A DNA stretch of 64,000 bases from Escherichia coli (GCF_044324875.1 NZ_CP172185.1), one strand, 5' to 3'; shown: positions 2,779-35,084, counted from the first letter of the stretch. Program-made: numbers and translations. The notes: generated by a model not told the origin, from the sequence alone.

Positions 2779-2988
2779 ATGACTGCAATTCTGAGAAGAC
2801 GCAATAAAACGCTTTTTACCGATACATCCGGGATGGAATACGAAGTGGAAAGCAGTGTCATCGCCACCACCACCCGATGCCCGGCAGGTGACGAACTGAT
2901 TTACGTCCACCTGACGGACGGGTCACAGATAACCGTCCTGACAGAGTCATGGCGCGAACTCGAGATAATAAGCGAGGTAAGAACATGA
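2779..2988 (+). CDS. Hypothetical early phage protein
   Basis: 69-aa ORF translationally coupled to the next gene (ATGA). Confidence 0.45.
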   Translation: MTAILRRRNKTLFTDTSGMEYEVESSVIATTTRCPAGDELIYVHLTDGSQITVLTESWRELEIISEVRT

Positions 2989-3197
2989 GCAGCAAACACG
3001 ATACCAACGCACGCAGACCAGGCAAAGAGGCGCGTCACCATATCGCCGTAATGCGCAACCTGCTTATGAGTGAAATCGACGATTTTGTGGCAGGCCTGGG
3101 GCAACCGGGCGAACCAGCAACACCAGGCCAGATACACAGGGAATTACGCCGCCGCGTGGAAAACGTCGTGGATTACGTCATAAACCCGAACGACTGA
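2985..3197 (+). CDS. Hypothetical early phage protein
   Basis: 70-aa ORF with GAGG RBS. Confidence 0.45.
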   Translation: MSSKHDTNARRPGKEARHHIAVMRNLLMSEIDDFVAGLGQPGEPATPGQIHRELRRRVENVVDYVINPND

Positions 3198-3236
3198 CGG
3201 GAACATGGCGAGCGTCAGATGACACACGCAGGGCAC

Positions 3237-3719
3237 TTATCGGGAAAAACCGATCGTAATGGCAGCCATCATCTTTTCAGCGAAAGAGAGAGATTCACGA
3301 TGACTGATATTCAGAGACATACAGGCTTTGTTGTACGCCACATTTTCCATGCATTCCAGGACAGGAGAGTCATGCATCTCAAGCTCTGGAAGGCGTGCCA
3401 GCAGAGCTTCCGTACTGAGGAGGGCGCTTTTGGTAATCAACTCATTGTAGCGATGGGCATGCTCACTCGCCGCCTGCGCACGTTGCCCGAAACGACATAT
3501 GAAATTACAGGCTCCGAGAACCACCACCACTGCCCCAAGCACCCAGCCGAAATGCCAGCCGGCTACGATGAACGCACCCGCCGCAAGGATCAAAATGTTG
3601 ATGATCGCATCAAGGCGACGATTGAATACCGCCGCGATGCGCTCCAGCCAGTAGCTGTACCAGAGACGGAACATGACCTCATCCCGTTCTCTCGATTTTT
3701 TACGTTGGTTGTTTTGCAT
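3237..3719 (-). CDS. Antisense-oriented two-TM membrane protein (160 aa); candidate moron
   Basis: Basic N-terminus (RKKSRER), two adjacent hydrophobic helices (IINILILAAGAFIVAGW / WVLGAVVVVLGACNFI), GAGGGA RBS; a competing plus-strand ORF 3219-3854 overlaps it. Confidence 0.4.
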   Translation of the reverse strand: MQNNQRKKSRERDEVMFRLWYSYWLERIAAVFNRRLDAIINILILAAGAFIVAGWHFGWVLGAVVVVLGACNFICRFGQRAQAASEHAHRYNELITKSALLSTEALLARLPELEMHDSPVLECMENVAYNKACMSLNISHRESLSFAEKMMAAITIGFSR

Positions 3720-3953
3720 GGTGTTTTATCCCTCATCGTCATCGCTCTGCCCCTAATCAGCGCAGAGTGCAGGGTAACCTGGCTCGTGGAATTTTTGCAG
3801 CCAGACATCTTTACCCCCGGGCGTGTTGAACAAAGTGTCCGCCAGATCCACTGAACGGCGGATTCATCAATGCTAACACGCCCTTCTTTTCCGGTTGAAG
3901 GCGAAAAAACCGGACCATTACCCCGACACAAAACAGAACAACGGAGAACAACT

Positions 3954-4508
3954 ATGCCCGCACTTAAACCTATGGGTGTATCAGGTGTACCACCGAAGCA
4001 TGTCAGAGCCTGGACACAACAGGAAGATGCTCTACTGGTCGGTTTATACCCCTCCCACACCGTACCAGAACTGACAAAACACTTTCAGAGAACCGGGCCA
4101 GCAATACGAAGCCGCATCCGTCTTTTGCTCTCTCAGGGGGTTATCCACACCAAACAACCCCCCCTGAATACAAAAGAACTCAACACGCTCATCAGGAATC
4201 GCCACACAAAAACCATCCGGGAACTCGCGAATGAACTGGGGCGCTCGACATCCACGGTGGGACTGAACCTGAGAAAAAGAGGGTACCGGTTCAGGAAATA
4301 CGGGGAACTCCACCACAGAGCCAGATACAGCGATCACCTGGTGGAGTTGGTAACTGAACTGCGCGATGAACAGGGGATGACATTCAGCGAAATCAGAAAG
4401 TACATCCGGGACATGGCCGGGATATCCCTTAAAAGATGGGTCCTCGCCCGGCTTTACGCACGATATACCGCCGCTGACACCGTGCTTTGCGAACTGCTAC
4501 CGGACTGA
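3954..4508 (+). CDS. DNA-binding protein with three tandem HTH-like repeats
   Basis: GGAGA RBS before ATG at 3954; three repeated helix-turn-helix-like segments. Confidence 0.55.
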   Translation: MPALKPMGVSGVPPKHVRAWTQQEDALLVGLYPSHTVPELTKHFQRTGPAIRSRIRLLLSQGVIHTKQPPLNTKELNTLIRNRHTKTIRELANELGRSTSTVGLNLRKRGYRFRKYGELHHRARYSDHLVELVTELRDEQGMTFSEIRKYIRDMAGISLKRWVLARLYARYTAADTVLCELLPD

Positions 4509-4828
4509 GTAACCACTATGCACACACAAAAAAACCGCTTGCCATGCCGCAATCAGTCAGGTTACATTTCCGCTGCACCTCATAAAACGGGTGCCGGGAT
4601 TGCAACCCCCGCTGACAACTACAGCGCACAACCGCGCCAGCGGTTTTTTTGTGCGTACCGTATCGCCACGTCTTTTTCGCGCCAGAATTATGGCGGGGCG
4701 TATGGGGCCGACTTCGGTCGGGCCGGTTTCTGTAGTTGCCGGTGGTTGCAACCCTGTACGTCTCGCCACCCAGAATTGCAACCTCTGGATGGTGAGTTTT
4801 CAAAACTTGCAACTACAGAGGCCACACC

Positions 4829-5053
4829 ATGGCAAACCGCAAACAACAGCGCGCATACGCTGCGCGTCGTCACATCCAGACTGAAATCAACCGCAGACTT
4901 TTCCGCGCATTCCGCGTCGCGCATATCATGCACATCAATATGCTGCATGAGCGCAGCCACGCACTGTCAAACATGTATTCCGCCGCTGTATTCAGCTACC
5001 TGGCGGATGACCTGCGCGAGCTGCAGGACCTCATTAACCAGCACCACCACTAA
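4829..5053 (+). CDS. Small hypothetical protein (74 aa)
   Basis: ORF immediately after a TTGCAAC repeat cluster; weak RBS. Confidence 0.3.
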   Translation: MANRKQQRAYAARRHIQTEINRRLFRAFRVAHIMHINMLHERSHALSNMYSAAVFSYLADDLRELQDLINQHHH

Positions 5054-5121
5054 TCAACATCCCGGAGCCATCCCGCCCCCGTACGCGGGAGGCTTCCGCA
5101 CGTCCGTTTCCGGAGGTTCTC

Positions 5122-5535
5122 ATGAAGAGCGTTAAGGGACTTTCAGATATTCAGGATTTTTTTAACTGGATGTGGGCGGTGGATCCACGCCTCGCTTCCC
5201 GTCTCAATGACCTGCACGACTATTACCGCCGCGCCTGTAAACAGGCAGCCCGCAGCGCTGCCACATACGGGGATTTTTCCTTCACCGTTGACGACCGTTA
5301 CCGCGTGGATGTCAGAGACCAGAACCACAGCCTGGAGCTGGGCCTGTTCCACATCAACGGGTGCGACAGCAGCGTTATCAGCTGGTCATCGTCAGAAATG
5401 GTGCTCGTTCTGGAAATGACCACCCACAGCGTGGTCGTGAAAGGGATTAAAACAGCAGAAGACTTTATCGCTGAATACCAGCGCCTTCTTGTGCTGTACC
5501 GGGCTGCATTTCAGAAGGCAACAGCAGGGGAGTAA
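5122..5535 (+). CDS. Hypothetical protein upstream of the replication gene
   Basis: 137-aa ORF with GGAGG RBS. Confidence 0.5.
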   Translation: MKSVKGLSDIQDFFNWMWAVDPRLASRLNDLHDYYRRACKQAARSAATYGDFSFTVDDRYRVDVRDQNHSLELGLFHINGCDSSVISWSSSEMVLVLEMTTHSVVVKGIKTAEDFIAEYQRLLVLYRAAFQKATAGE

Positions 5536-8860: not shown

Positions 8861-9616
8861 TTAACGCGTTTTTTCGCTGCTTTCCACTACCGGGGGATTT
8901 TTCCTCAGTGACTCTCCCTGAAGGACCACTCGGTGTGAGTTATGTACCAGTCTGTCCAGGATGGCATCTGCTGTTGTTGGGTTCTCCATCAGACCATGCC
9001 ATTTATCTACCGGGAACTGGCTTACCACTATCGTGCTGCTTTGTCCGTAACGATCCTCTATGAGCTCCAGAAGGTCATTACACTGGGCGTTACTTAACTG
9101 TTCCAGCCCCAGATCGTCCAGGATTAGAACCTGTATTTTTTGCAACTGTTTCAGATATTTCAGCCAGCTGCCATCAACACGTCCCTGAGCCAGTTGTTCC
9201 AGTAATCGCCCGGTTCTACAGTACCGGACGCTGTGTTTCTGTCGACATGCCTGTTCGCCCAGCGCATTGGCTATCCAGCTCTTGCCACATCCTGTCGGAC
9301 CGGTTATCAGCAGGTTTTTCCTGTGGGTTATGTAGTGGCCGTTCAGCAGTTCTCTCATCTGTTCAGCCCGCAGACCTCTTGAGGCCGGATAGCGCAGCCC
9401 TTCCGGTGTTGCCTGGTATTTCAGGCCGGCATTTTTTCTCAACCGTGCCACACGGCTGTTTTCCCTGCTCAGAAGCTCGTCATCAACCAGCAGCGTCAGC
9501 CTTTCCTCGAACGACAGTTCGTCGTAGGTCTGAGGCGTTTCCCGCTGCCGTATCAGGCTCCCGGCCATCGCCGGGAGTTTCAGTTGGGTCAGTTTGTTTA
9601 ACAGGTTATCACTCAT
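8861..9616 (-). CDS. istB: IS21-family helper ATPase IstB
   Basis: Walker A GPTGCGKS; start taken at MSDNLLNKL. Confidence 0.85.
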   Translation of the reverse strand: MSDNLLNKLTQLKLPAMAGSLIRQRETPQTYDELSFEERLTLLVDDELLSRENSRVARLRKNAGLKYQATPEGLRYPASRGLRAEQMRELLNGHYITHRKNLLITGPTGCGKSWIANALGEQACRQKHSVRYCRTGRLLEQLAQGRVDGSWLKYLKQLQKIQVLILDDLGLEQLSNAQCNDLLELIEDRYGQSSTIVVSQFPVDKWHGLMENPTTADAILDRLVHNSHRVVLQGESLRKNPPVVESSEKTR

Positions 9617-9632
9617 ACTGTTGTTCCTTCTG

Positions 9633-11168
9633 TCAGTGGTAGTAGCCCGGACCACGCAGGTTTTCATGCTCTGAAGCATATGCCGGATGTTGTTCGCCCT
9701 GGCGGGATAATGGAAGCTCCAGGTTCTCCCGATGGTGACGCAGCAGATTGTCGATAAAGCGTCTGTCAGGGGCGTTATAGTGCAGGGCAACGTAACAGGC
9801 CTTTTCCAGCCGTTCCGGGCCGTATTTTTTCTGAAGTGCCAGCAGCCCCAGAACTGCACGATAAGCCAGTTCCGGATGGGGTTTTGCCTTCAGCATGGAT
9901 TCAACCACCCGGCCTGTGGACGGGCCCGTACGTTTTCCCTGCTCGATCAGGCGTTCCGGTGTCCATGTCCCGTGCTGCCGGTGGCGCTCTGGCATGTGAA
10001 GCGGATTGGTTGTGTGTTTATATTCATGTGTGCTGCGCGGATGTTGCGCCACACACTGCCCCTTGTGCCAGAGCTGTACCACCGACTGCCCCGCCTTCAG
10101 TGACAGACGCTGACCGACCAGTTCGTGTGGAACGGAGTACCAGTGACGGGCATATTCAACGTGGTAGTCAGGGCCAACCTTCACAGCTTTGTATTCCGTG
10201 TATTCATAAGGTGCCAGAGGCAGCGGAGAGAGTGCTGGCGCATCCAGTATGCGGAAGCGTTCTGCACGGGTTTGATTGCCGTACCCCTTCATTGGCCGGT
10301 TATTCATGTCTGTCAGTAACTCCCTAAGGCGCGCATTCAGCGCCCTGAGCGTGTGGAAGGTTTCATTACGGATGCGGGCAAGAAGCCATCGTTCAACGAT
10401 GAGGACGCCGTTTTCTGCTTTTGGTTTATCTTTAGGTTTGCGTGGTCGGGCCGGGATGATAACCGTGCCATAGTGCTCAGCCAGTGCCTGATAACTGTCG
10501 TTGATGACAGGCTCATATCGATCGGCCTTTTTCACTGCGCTTCTGAGGTTATCGGGGATGAGCAGCTTCGGTACGCCGCCCAGGAAGGTCAGGCAACGGC
10601 TGTGGGCATTTAACCATGACATCATGTCCTGACCTTCGCACGCTTCAACGTAGGTATAGTTGGACGCCCCCATTACGGCCACGAAGATTGCCACGCGGCG
10701 TATCTCACCGGTGTCCGGATTAATAACAGGAACCGTAGGACCACAGAAGTCGATAAAAAGCTTTTCGCCGGCACGATGCTCCTGGCGCATGGAGAGACGT
10801 CGCGTTTTTTTCCACTCCCGGTAGCAACGGCAGAAGTGCGAGTATCCCATCGCTTTGTTACCCGCCTGTGCCTTGTATTCCATCCACAACAGTTGCCGCG
10901 TCACACCTGGTTTTCTCATTTCCGTATCGAAGTACAACATGTCAGGCATTACAAGCTCTGATGCAAAGGTGTCTTTGGGCGGAAAAATGAGTTTCTCCAG
11001 CGTGTCATGGGATATATCAGCAGGTAATGGCCATGACAGAGAAGAGGCTTTGAAGCGGGCAAGAACCTCAAAAACGGTTGAGGCGCTGATGTGTAACGTC
11101 AGTCCGATACAACGGTTAGTCAGCTTCTTGTCGAACTTGAGCTGAAGGATCTTAAAACAGGTTTCCAT
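9633..11168 (-). CDS. istA: IS21-family transposase IstA
   Basis: ~512 aa from METCFKILQ; N-terminal HTH and integrase-like catalytic core typical of IstA. Confidence 0.85.
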   Translation of the reverse strand: METCFKILQLKFDKKLTNRCIGLTLHISASTVFEVLARFKASSLSWPLPADISHDTLEKLIFPPKDTFASELVMPDMLYFDTEMRKPGVTRQLLWMEYKAQAGNKAMGYSHFCRCYREWKKTRRLSMRQEHRAGEKLFIDFCGPTVPVINPDTGEIRRVAIFVAVMGASNYTYVEACEGQDMMSWLNAHSRCLTFLGGVPKLLIPDNLRSAVKKADRYEPVINDSYQALAEHYGTVIIPARPRKPKDKPKAENGVLIVERWLLARIRNETFHTLRALNARLRELLTDMNNRPMKGYGNQTRAERFRILDAPALSPLPLAPYEYTEYKAVKVGPDYHVEYARHWYSVPHELVGQRLSLKAGQSVVQLWHKGQCVAQHPRSTHEYKHTTNPLHMPERHRQHGTWTPERLIEQGKRTGPSTGRVVESMLKAKPHPELAYRAVLGLLALQKKYGPERLEKACYVALHYNAPDRRFIDNLLRHHRENLELPLSRQGEQHPAYASEHENLRGPGYYH

Positions 11169-33992: not shown

Positions 33993-35084
33993 ATGAAAGA
34001 GCTGTCAGTTACCGTTCCGTCACCGGATATCGACATCACCATCAACAACAACACACTGGCAAACCTCACAGAGCGACTCATGACGCTGACCCTGACGGAT
34101 AACCGGGCCTTTGAGGCAGACCGCGTCACCCTCACCCTTGACGATACGGACGGGCAGTTACAGTTGCCACCACGTGGCGCACGCCTGAGAGTGATGATTG
34201 GCTGGCGAGGAGAATCACTGGTTAACAAGGGCACCTACGTCGTTGATGAGGTTGCGTGGGAAGGACCTCCAGATAAACTGATCATCACCGCCAGCAGCGC
34301 AGATTTTCGGGAAGAGTTCAACGTGAGGCGGGAGGTATCCTGGCACGACGTGACCGTAAAACAGGTTGTGTCAGCCATCGCTCACCGCTACGGCCTGAAG
34401 ACACAGATAAGCGAAATCCTCATGGATATCGAAATTGACCACGCTGACCAGACCGAAGAGAGCGATATATCCTTCCTGACCCGCATGGCTGAAATGCTGG
34501 GTGCGATTGCCACCGTAAAAAACGGCAGCCTGTTATTCATTCTGCCGGGTGGCGGAACCGGGCCGGACGGAAAAGCCCTGCCTTCGTTCGCCATTACCCG
34601 CAGCAGCGGCGACAGTCACCGCTTTCGCATTGCTGACCGTGATGCGTATACGGGGGTCCGGGCGCACTGGCTCGATCTGAAGTTCGGGCACAAGAAAAAA
34701 GTGAACGTGAAGCGACGCAGGGAAGCCGGGAAACAGAAACAGGAGAAGAGCAGCAGCCGGGAGGGTGATTACATGGAAGGCGCGGAAGGGAACGTCTACG
34801 TTCTGCGCAGGACTTACCAGAATGAAGAAACCGCACGACGTGCAGCTGCGGCAAAGTGGCAGGAGTTACAGCGGGGAGCAGCGGCATTCTCCATCACTCT
34901 GGCACGGGGTCGTGCCGACCTGTATCCCGAAATGCACGGCAGGGTAACAGGTTTTAAAAGCGAGGTGGACAATCAGGACTGGATTATTGCCAGGGTGGAG
35001 CACATCATAGATGAAAGCGGCTTCACCACACAACTGGAGCTGGAAGCGAAAATCCCCGAATGGATAGCAGATTCAGGCGGATAA
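33993..35084 (+). CDS. D: Tail protein, P2 gpD-like (late control D family)
   Basis: GGAGAG RBS before ATG at 33993; ~363 aa; followed by ogr as in P2. Confidence 0.75.
   Translation: MKELSVTVPSPDIDITINNNTLANLTERLMTLTLTDNRAFEADRVTLTLDDTDGQLQLPPRGARLRVMIGWRGESLVNKGTYVVDEVAWEGPPDKLIITASSADFREEFNVRREVSWHDVTVKQVVSAIAHRYGLKTQISEILMDIEIDHADQTEESDISFLTRMAEMLGAIATVKNGSLLFILPGGGTGPDGKALPSFAITRSSGDSHRFRIADRDAYTGVRAHWLDLKFGHKKKVNVKRRREAGKQKQEKSSSREGDYMEGAEGNVYVLRRTYQNEETARRAAAAKWQELQRGAAAFSITLARGRADLYPEMHGRVTGFKSEVDNQDWIIARVEHIIDESGFTTQLELEAKIPEWIADSGG

Follow-up and report, generated by a model that had tools for sequence, protein, structure and literature searches.

The window examined here, a 64,000-nucleotide stretch of Escherichia coli DNA (NZ_CP172185.1, assembly GCF_044324875.1), begins with ~8 kb of a P2-like (Peduoviridae) prophage, namely its immunity and early region. 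Within the early operon of this prophage, two long open reading frames (ORFs) lie on opposite strands of the same DNA. Both start with ATG, at the coordinates reported in the initial annotation:

3219-3854, plus strand: operon-sense ORF (plus ORF), ATG start, 211 amino acids (aa), ending 15 nucleotides (nt) before the next ATG at 3870
3237-3719, minus strand: antisense ORF (minus ORF), ATG start, 160 aa
3730-3734, minus strand: Shine-Dalgarno (SD) sequence GAGGG of the minus ORF, 10 nt before its ATG

Codon for codon, the two ORFs are in exact register, with each codon of the minus ORF the reverse complement of one codon of the plus ORF. Stop codons in the plus frame can therefore arise solely from TTA, CTA or TCA codons of the minus gene. 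The antisense cassette, with a small leader ORF upstream of the minus gene, falls entirely within the plus ORF, which is in frame with the next gene of the operon, with a single TGA between them. The initial annotation regarded the two ORFs as mutually exclusive. Our comparison points elsewhere: both frames are under selection, the minus frame for its protein and the plus frame only for its openness. The minus ORF is backed by homology, predicted fold and codon positions, and the plus frame has been kept open in 13 or more saturated lineages as well as a further clade.

Evidence that the minus strand codes for a protein comes from the comparison of the window with two diverged E. coli versions of the locus (L003 and L004) and a Yersinia phage version (L002). 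Between the window and these three homologues, the differences at positions 1/2/3 of the minus codons numbered 48/30/88, 53/29/99 and 74/47/103, and amino-acid identity between lineages was 0.39–0.71 in the minus frame versus 0.21–0.41 in the plus frame (0.39–0.59 versus 0.21–0.33 for the window against the three homologues). The dominance of third-position differences and the higher identity in the minus frame therefore indicate a coding gene on the minus strand. Its product matches phrog_6315 end to end (E = 5e-65). A profile search of 1.84 billion representatives expanded the family to 162 clusters at E ≤ 1e-3, nearly all of 150–165 aa and matched from residue ~12 to ~155. In four diverged prophages, PGAP annotates the minus ORF only. 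On these comparisons, the minus ORF is a genuine conserved prophage gene, encoding a predicted two-helix membrane protein.

The predicted structure of this protein is that of a SLATT protein. A Kyte-Doolittle profile (19-aa windows) gave one continuous hydrophobic stretch at residues ~34–78. The AF2 model, based on a 78-sequence alignment (pLDDT 96.1, pTM 0.87), has helices at residues 2–52, 58–75, 77–99, 103–114, 122–135 and 146–155, and the break at 53–57 splits the hydrophobic stretch in two. The resulting layout is a basic amphipathic N-terminal helix leading into a first transmembrane (TM) helix (~36–55), a short loop, a second TM helix (~58–77) and a tail of ~83 aa with four helices that is predicted to be cytoplasmic. 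This bears out the initial annotation, which had described a basic N-terminus, two TM helices, a tail of ~80 aa and a good ribosome-binding site, the latter matching the conserved GAGGG. It also corresponds to the SLATT-type layout, in which two adjacent TM helices stand between an N-terminal helix and a helical cytoplasmic region, all within ~150 aa.

Structural searches agree with this layout. Foldseek against AFDB50 returned 98 matches at E ≤ 1e-3 with TM-scores of 0.8–0.94, many of which are annotated as SLATT or DUF4231. The best match is SLATT-annotated, 51% identical, with a TM-score of 0.94. Dozens of further matches with a SLATT or DUF4231 annotation reached TM-scores of 0.8–0.9 with E-values down to 7e-12, and one match is annotated as 'Fels-2 prophage protein'. 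At the sequence level, sub-threshold matches to SLATT_1 or SLATT_4 were found in 4 of 10 further family members (E = 0.001–0.07, covering approximately residues 7–96), and likewise in the window protein. Curated hidden Markov models (HMMs) for SLATT gave no match at their cut-offs; the best, NCBIfam SLATT_1, reached E = 0.006 and 16.5 bits versus a cut-off of 41. Pfam returned no significant family for the protein or for the 78 members, with one SLATT_fungal match at 0.095 among the 78, and no Pfam-annotated relatives were gained when the 78-sequence profile was used in a word-indexed protein search. The PDB, searched by sequence profile and with Foldseek, offered no solved structure for comparison. 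From its modelled structure, we assign the minus protein to the SLATT fold superfamily, as a divergent member that stands alone, and refer to its gene below as the SLATT gene. SLATT proteins have been described as 'predicted pore-forming toxins', i.e., predicted, not proven (DRT10 preprint, 10.64898/2026.04.29.721553).

In relatives, the SLATT gene has a partner on its strand. Directly upstream lies an ORF of 25–45 aa that ends 3–12 nt before the SLATT ATG, and the SD of the SLATT gene falls inside the acidic C-terminal codons of this leader ORF. The leader is intact in 10 of the 13 P2-clade lineages and in the additional clade (e.g., MSDTDKFHVPRKPAPSPEKSKGGEDDED and ...DDFHVLHKPAPPEEKDDEE), and a proline-rich mini-ORF is found at the same position in all six distant loci (e.g., RPAPKPEPKP and PKPPPPPPK). 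Divergence of the leader is dominated by third positions, and we therefore consider it a real gene, and the unit a two-gene cassette. Across loci, the leader is the only constant partner of the SLATT gene, and no PHROG family covers it. In relatives of the window copy, the leader would be translationally coupled to the SLATT gene, for which it may serve as antidote, sensor or leader peptide. A role through EF-P-dependent polyproline stalling was rejected, since many leaders are without consecutive prolines. In L030, L031, L032, L034, L036, L037 and L039-L045, every SLATT gene is preceded by a mini-ORF of this kind, with PxPxP-type motifs and often a charged tail. The window itself retains the following remnant:

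3753-3851, minus strand: degenerate leader remnant (translation '..QKFHEPGYPALCAD', then stop), with a premature TAG and, in frame, only a GTG without an SD

Here, the loss of 1 nt has shifted the canonical ATG (3808-3806) out of the reading frame, with the SLATT ORF and its SD intact. An in-frame TAA at 3728-3726, beside the SD, is a relic of the leader's stop codon. The layout GAGG(A/G)..TAA..ATG is kept in 11 of 13 lineages, L022 and L025 being without it. We favour 3719 as the start of the SLATT gene over Met16 (3674), the start used by PGAP, because the SD and the N-terminus are conserved at the former position. The basic N-terminus reads MQNNQRKKSRERDE. In another locus (L047, 2289-2749), the SLATT copy is apparently frameshifted after residue ~36, which would make it either a pseudogene or an assembly error.

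Public records disagree about which of the two ORFs is the gene. A megablast search against phage records gave no match, and with tblastn Yersinia phage vB_YenM_42.18 was the sole match. Its GenBank record (OM046624, 2950-3615, vBYenM4218_008; L002 in our comparison) annotates the operon-sense ORF, of 221 aa, and omits the SLATT gene on the opposite strand, whereas RefSeq records of E. coli annotate the reverse. A scan of viral contigs with P0043 gave no match. One might argue from the phage record that only the plus ORF is real and the minus ORF an artefact, since the plus ORF fits the operon polarity and the tight gene spacing. Yet the codon-position pattern, the breadth of the family, the SLATT fold, the conserved SD and the coupled leader are all on the minus strand, and we consider this explanation next to impossible. 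The initial annotation had named homology for the plus ORF alone as an outcome that would overturn the antisense gene; instead, homology, fold and substitution pattern support the minus ORF. This settles the annotation conflict in favour of the RefSeq gene.

What, then, is the plus ORF? As described in the initial annotation, it is rich in His and Arg (15 His and 21 Arg, 17%) and has a weak ribosome-binding site. Its translation matched no family in PHROGs, NCBIfam or PADLOC. For a fixed SLATT protein and the local codon usage, the chance of an open in-register antisense frame is ~2% for this copy and ~0.7–2% per homologue, and the frame is open or nearly so in all homologues compared. Its persistence among relatives goes far beyond what chance would give. 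The codon test was based on 13 P2-type lineages of less than 93% nucleotide identity, with 75 ORFs of the same loci as controls. The SLATT gene had 9 TTA/CTA/TCA codons in 2041 (0.44%), against 2.9% in the control ORFs. Hence 9 antisense stops were observed where 75 were expected, or 59.6 after scaling for the gene's lower frequency of A at third positions (A3). The avoidance is specific: A-ending codons made up 3 of 268 in the CTN and TCN families (1.1%) and 116 of 662 (17.5%) in the other four-fold families (Fisher P = 5e-15), and the TTA/TTG ratio was 6/29 versus 181/127 for the other purine-ending pairs. Controls were without such a contrast (17.5% versus 19.9%), and only 2 of 27 size-matched controls had one stop or fewer. 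In a further clade with P2 layout, ~31% identical to the window protein, the frame contains 0–1 stops and a bridging ORF of ~240 codons.

An explanation that requires no selection at all is that the plus ORF is a meaningless shadow ORF, with the in-register antisense frame being generically the most open and base composition doing the rest. In line with this, the in-register frame contains 0–2 stops versus 2–7 and 9–20 in the other two antisense frames, A3 of the gene is somewhat low (0.14–0.19), and the plus ORF is without homologues. However, the depletion is limited to the three stop-creating codons, persists after A3 scaling, and is absent from the control ORFs and from family members in other contexts. 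An overall shortage of A at third positions, or a strand skew, would account for at most a 1.3-fold effect, compared with the ~7-fold effect seen, and other A-ending codons are normal. A shadow ORF is therefore very improbable. Shared ancestry was also rejected as the cause of the openness: four-fold sites at identical residues differ by 64–66% between lineages, no lower than in neighbouring genes. With four-fold sites saturated, each lineage counts in effect as an independent sample, and the plus frame is unconstrained in its amino-acid sequence.

The ends of the plus ORF follow the same pattern. Seven of the nine residual stops fall at SLATT codons 142–153, which is the 5' edge of the plus ORF, and the ORF begins slightly later in those lineages. 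An ATG is available in every lineage, in some with a strong SD (GGAGG 7 nt upstream in L019, GGAG 8 nt upstream in L022). The start lies 7–75 nt past the preceding gene in the six lineages checked, and the end lies at or near the start of the next gene in most of the 13, falling at most ~230 nt short. Hence, the ORF tiles the space between its neighbours.

These observations might also be explained by true dual coding, where the plus ORF specifies a functional lytic polypeptide, for instance one that protects the phage against its own SLATT protein, and whose sequence is dictated by the complementary strand. The strong statistics for an open frame, the ATG in all lineages with several good SDs, and the annotation of the plus ORF as a coding sequence in vB_YenM_42.18 are compatible with this idea. 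Moreover, the exact register keeps an inverse hydropathy whatever the wobble base of the SLATT codon. Purifying selection on the plus-frame amino-acid sequence, however, was not found: SLATT synonymous sites show no extra constraint, identity in the plus frame is low, and no library family matches. The ORF also varies in length and ends, from 130 to 455 codons; in L014 the span is occupied by two different ORFs, and in L004 and L022 the plus ORF is fused with unrelated downstream sequence. We consider dual coding unlikely. A variant of it is an obligate sense/antisense pair, where the plus polypeptide, made only in the lytic cycle, would as the automatic hydropathic complement of the SLATT protein neutralise or titrate this protein or its mRNA-bound ribosomes. 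The sole selectable requirement would then be the absence of stops, which matches the observed pattern, and the phage would escape its own toxin. We rate this variant as quite improbable. The comparative data indicate no second conserved protein; selection keeps the plus frame free of stops and does not preserve its sequence.

The avoidance of stops is specific to the P2-type context. Wherever there is sufficient flanking sequence, family members elsewhere are also antisense to their neighbours. These other contexts comprise two lambdoid early-left regions (beside the S24 repressor), one terminase region (between HNH and terminase genes) and two contigs too short to classify, and here the in-register stops number 6, 17, 19, 11 and 9. 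A P2-like locus with the cassette right after cox has 3 in-register stops. Codon bias intrinsic to the family was rejected as the cause, because distant members carry 6–19 stops. The stops in distant members and in lambda sieB argue that the avoidance is neither a family property nor a consequence of antisense placement as such.

We propose that an accessory ('moron') cassette was inserted backwards into the early lytic operon of a P2-like prophage. The SLATT gene product would be an inner-membrane protein with both its N-terminus and its C-terminal tail in the cytoplasm. Most likely the gene would have a promoter of its own and be expressed in the lysogen, where the early operon is under repression; expression in the lysogen is predicted because the gene faces the early promoter head-on. 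The available part of a lysogen transcriptome paper on the P2-like prophage BTP5 contains nothing on such a gene. The protein may act as a membrane-permeabilising exclusion or abortive-infection effector, as suggested by its SLATT fold and by analogy with other SLATT effectors and with lambda SieB. The initial annotation had noted that the minus ORF is the sole antisense gene of the early operon and has a moron-like position, which is upheld by the RefSeq annotation of an identical E. coli prophage, where it is the sole minus-strand gene between cox and the replication gene. Given the SLATT fold and this position, its suggestion of an abortive-infection or exclusion candidate seems a reasonable one.

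Left untranslated, an antisense insert of ~640 nt would lay the early mRNA open to Rho ahead of the genes for DNA binding, derepression and replication. The introduction of PMC11718236 describes P2 operons as subject to Rho-dependent polarity and lambdoid operons as antiterminated. The composition of the operon-sense RNA includes a stretch that might be relevant in this respect:

3461-3600, plus strand: segment of the operon-sense RNA that is rich in C and poor in G (C minus G ~+0.2, windows of 78 nt), across from the part of the minus gene that codes for the TM helices

If untranslated, this stretch could possibly serve as a Rho-loading (rut) region, judging from its composition. Translation of the plus ORF during lytic growth would let ribosomes follow RNA polymerase across the insert, whatever is encoded. 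This bridging would prevent Rho-dependent termination, might also maintain translational coupling, and would thereby secure expression of the regulatory and replication genes further along the operon. Bridging would explain the openness without sequence conservation, the tiling, the variable ends, the use of two ORFs to tile the insert in L014, and the lack of an effect in lambdoid contexts.

Several observations weigh against this proposal. The SLATT assignment is based on the predicted fold and sub-threshold HMM matches, with no Pfam or NCBIfam model at its cut-off, and PADLOC-DB v2 gave no match to a defence model (best LeoBC, E = 0.018, 12 bits). A simple scan matched no sigma-70 promoter near the minus gene. 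The leader is broken in the window copy, so the cassette could be partly decayed here. The plus-ORF ATG is preceded only by a weak purine-rich stretch, and its SD is weak in some other lineages as well. In two lineages (L009 and L011), a gap of ~240 nt separates the bridging ORF from the called ORF before it, and L014 needs two ORFs to cover the insert. Furthermore, the contrast set consists of six homologues from non-P2 contexts, whose operons are assumed to be antiterminated.

Alternatively, the SLATT cassette might serve the phage cycle or the maintenance of the prophage, for instance through depolarisation and timing, as an addiction-type toxin, or by antisense damping of leaky early transcription. 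No SMODS cyclase, SLOG, TIR or reverse-transcriptase (RT) partner was found among its neighbours, which are ordinary P2 early genes or other phage genes, and this, like the lack of a PADLOC match, would fit a role in the phage's own cycle. The SLATT transcript would be fully complementary to the early mRNA, and the small leader ORF resembles a regulatory or antidote element. Yet antisense members of the family occur in P2 early, lambdoid early-left and terminase operons, at least three types that are unrelated to one another, as is typical of portable accessory genes, and lambda sieB, which resembles the gene most closely in position, is an exclusion gene. We regard this alternative as serious but rather unlikely. 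By analogy, exclusion or abortive infection is the most likely role of the SLATT cassette, a view that we hold with roughly balanced confidence and doubt. For the full proposal, a SLATT exclusion or abortive-infection cassette bridged by a translated ORF that would be free in sequence and counteract Rho polarity, we see the chances of being right and wrong as about equal.

The wider setting of the cassette is that of an ordinary P2-like prophage. The 851 bases at 3100-3950 are 100% identical in chromosomal prophages of 15 complete E. coli genomes among the matches listed; 26 records reach at least 99% identity, and a match is present in 30 of 5426 genomes. In NZ_CP033635, where the prophage element adjoins dmsA, the gene order is integrase, HTH repressor (minus strand) and then a plus-strand operon with Cox, several small genes, a DNA-binding protein, a 'derepression protein' and the replication endonuclease gpA. 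The features flanking the two ORFs in the window are:

2985-3197, plus strand: upstream early-operon gene (PGAP hypothetical, phrog_4144), with its stop 21 nt before the plus-ORF ATG
3839-3861, no strand assigned: short hairpin (CCGCC-13 nt-GGCGG) whose loop holds the plus-ORF stop TGA (3852-3854); read along the minus strand, it precedes the leader ORF
3870-4508, plus strand: downstream early-operon gene for a DNA-binding protein, in the same frame as the plus ORF

At the position of the hairpin, other lineages carry one with different stems, and support from covariation is weak. The true start of the DNA-binding gene is likely 3954 and not 3870 as annotated by PGAP, because GGAG lies 7 nt upstream of 3954 and the L003 orthologue begins at the equivalent site. 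Terminator-like hairpins followed by a T-run were seen at 3909-3944 on the minus strand, upstream of the cassette and inside the 5' end of the annotated DNA-binding ORF; this sequence is partly kept in L004 ('RPSFPVEGEK' in translation).

Some 700 nt downstream of the ORF pair, Rfam models identified isrK (60 bits) and C4 antisense RNA (80 bits) directly 5' of the 'derepression protein' gene (4575-4650, 4686-4773 and 4829-5053, all on the plus strand), a P1/P4-type RNA immunity module within a P2-like prophage. A second long operon-sense ORF (4518-5135, plus strand, in the window; 5323-5931 in L003; 3884-5251 in L004; 4287-5393, minus strand, in L027) crosses the isrK and C4 RNA genes, as well as the derepression gene in another frame. 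It starts 10 nt past the stop of the DNA-binding gene and overlaps the start of the next gene. Its translation is matched by the PHROG 'transcriptional regulator' families phrog_821, 995 and 6928, and these matches therefore suggest that the RNA genes were probably annotated as proteins in some phage records. Similarly, the 456-codon plus ORF of L004 was rejected as a single real gene, as it crosses the isrK/C4 RNAs and the derepression gene in another frame. Further downstream, a 332-aa ORF at 8861-9859 on the minus strand resembles, from its translation alone, an IS21-family IstB ATPase with the Walker A motif 'GPTGCGKS', which would suggest an insertion sequence (IS) just beyond the replication region.

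These results have several implications. The fold assignment places the uncharacterised phrog_6315 in the SLATT effector superfamily, and the combination of mini-ORF and SLATT gene forms a portable two-gene cassette, antisense in several kinds of operon, which is a candidate for a new exclusion or abortive-infection module. The meaning of long antisense ORFs in bacteria and phages is disputed, and the comparative signal obtained here is unusually clean. The pattern points to an ORF selected for being translated, not for what it encodes. If the anti-polarity explanation holds, it would show how operons without antitermination tolerate antisense insertions, and some 'shadow ORFs' should then not be dropped by annotators.

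SLATT proteins serve as effectors in CBASS-like systems and in the reverse-transcriptase system DRT10/UG17. The minus protein shares their predicted fold and size, its N-terminal helix being followed by two adjacent TM helices and then a helical tail. In contrast to these systems, its gene is stand-alone, paired with a proline-rich ORF of 25–45 aa, and always antisense in phage operons. In this latter respect it resembles SieB of lambda and P22, a membrane protein whose gene is likewise antisense inside the early operon of a temperate phage. In lambda, sieB (34482-35036, plus strand) lies within the PL operon between ral and N (both on the minus strand), and distant members of our SLATT family hold the equivalent position in lambdoid phages. 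Homology to SieB was rejected, with an hhalign probability of 0.1% and no match to Pfam SieB (PF14163) in the 78 members. Unlike the minus gene, lambda sieB has 9 in-register antisense stops and is without a bridging ORF.

A long ORF embedded antisense to an established gene is also known from E. coli O157:H7 and Pseudomonas aeruginosa (PMC9927249, PMC8850804). According to the abstracts, those cases are based mainly on RNA-seq and ribosome profiling, and for the Pseudomonas pair also on purifying selection. Our evidence differs in being comparative, with stop-specific codon avoidance at saturation and an unconstrained encoded sequence.

The idea that translation decides the fate of a phage transcript has precedents. 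Translation-controlled Rho termination operates in c4-icd-ant of phages P1 and P7, and the Psu protein of P4 relieves polarity in P2. The nested kil/eta genes of P4 were reportedly found by Forti et al. in 1999 to be under translation-controlled Rho termination as well. As in these P4 and P1 systems, translation of the plus ORF would let transcription proceed, in an operon of a type that the introduction of PMC11718236 describes as Rho-sensitive. Unlike the regulatory leader ORFs of P4 and P1, however, the plus ORF would have a constitutive role, as a bridge across an antisense insert.

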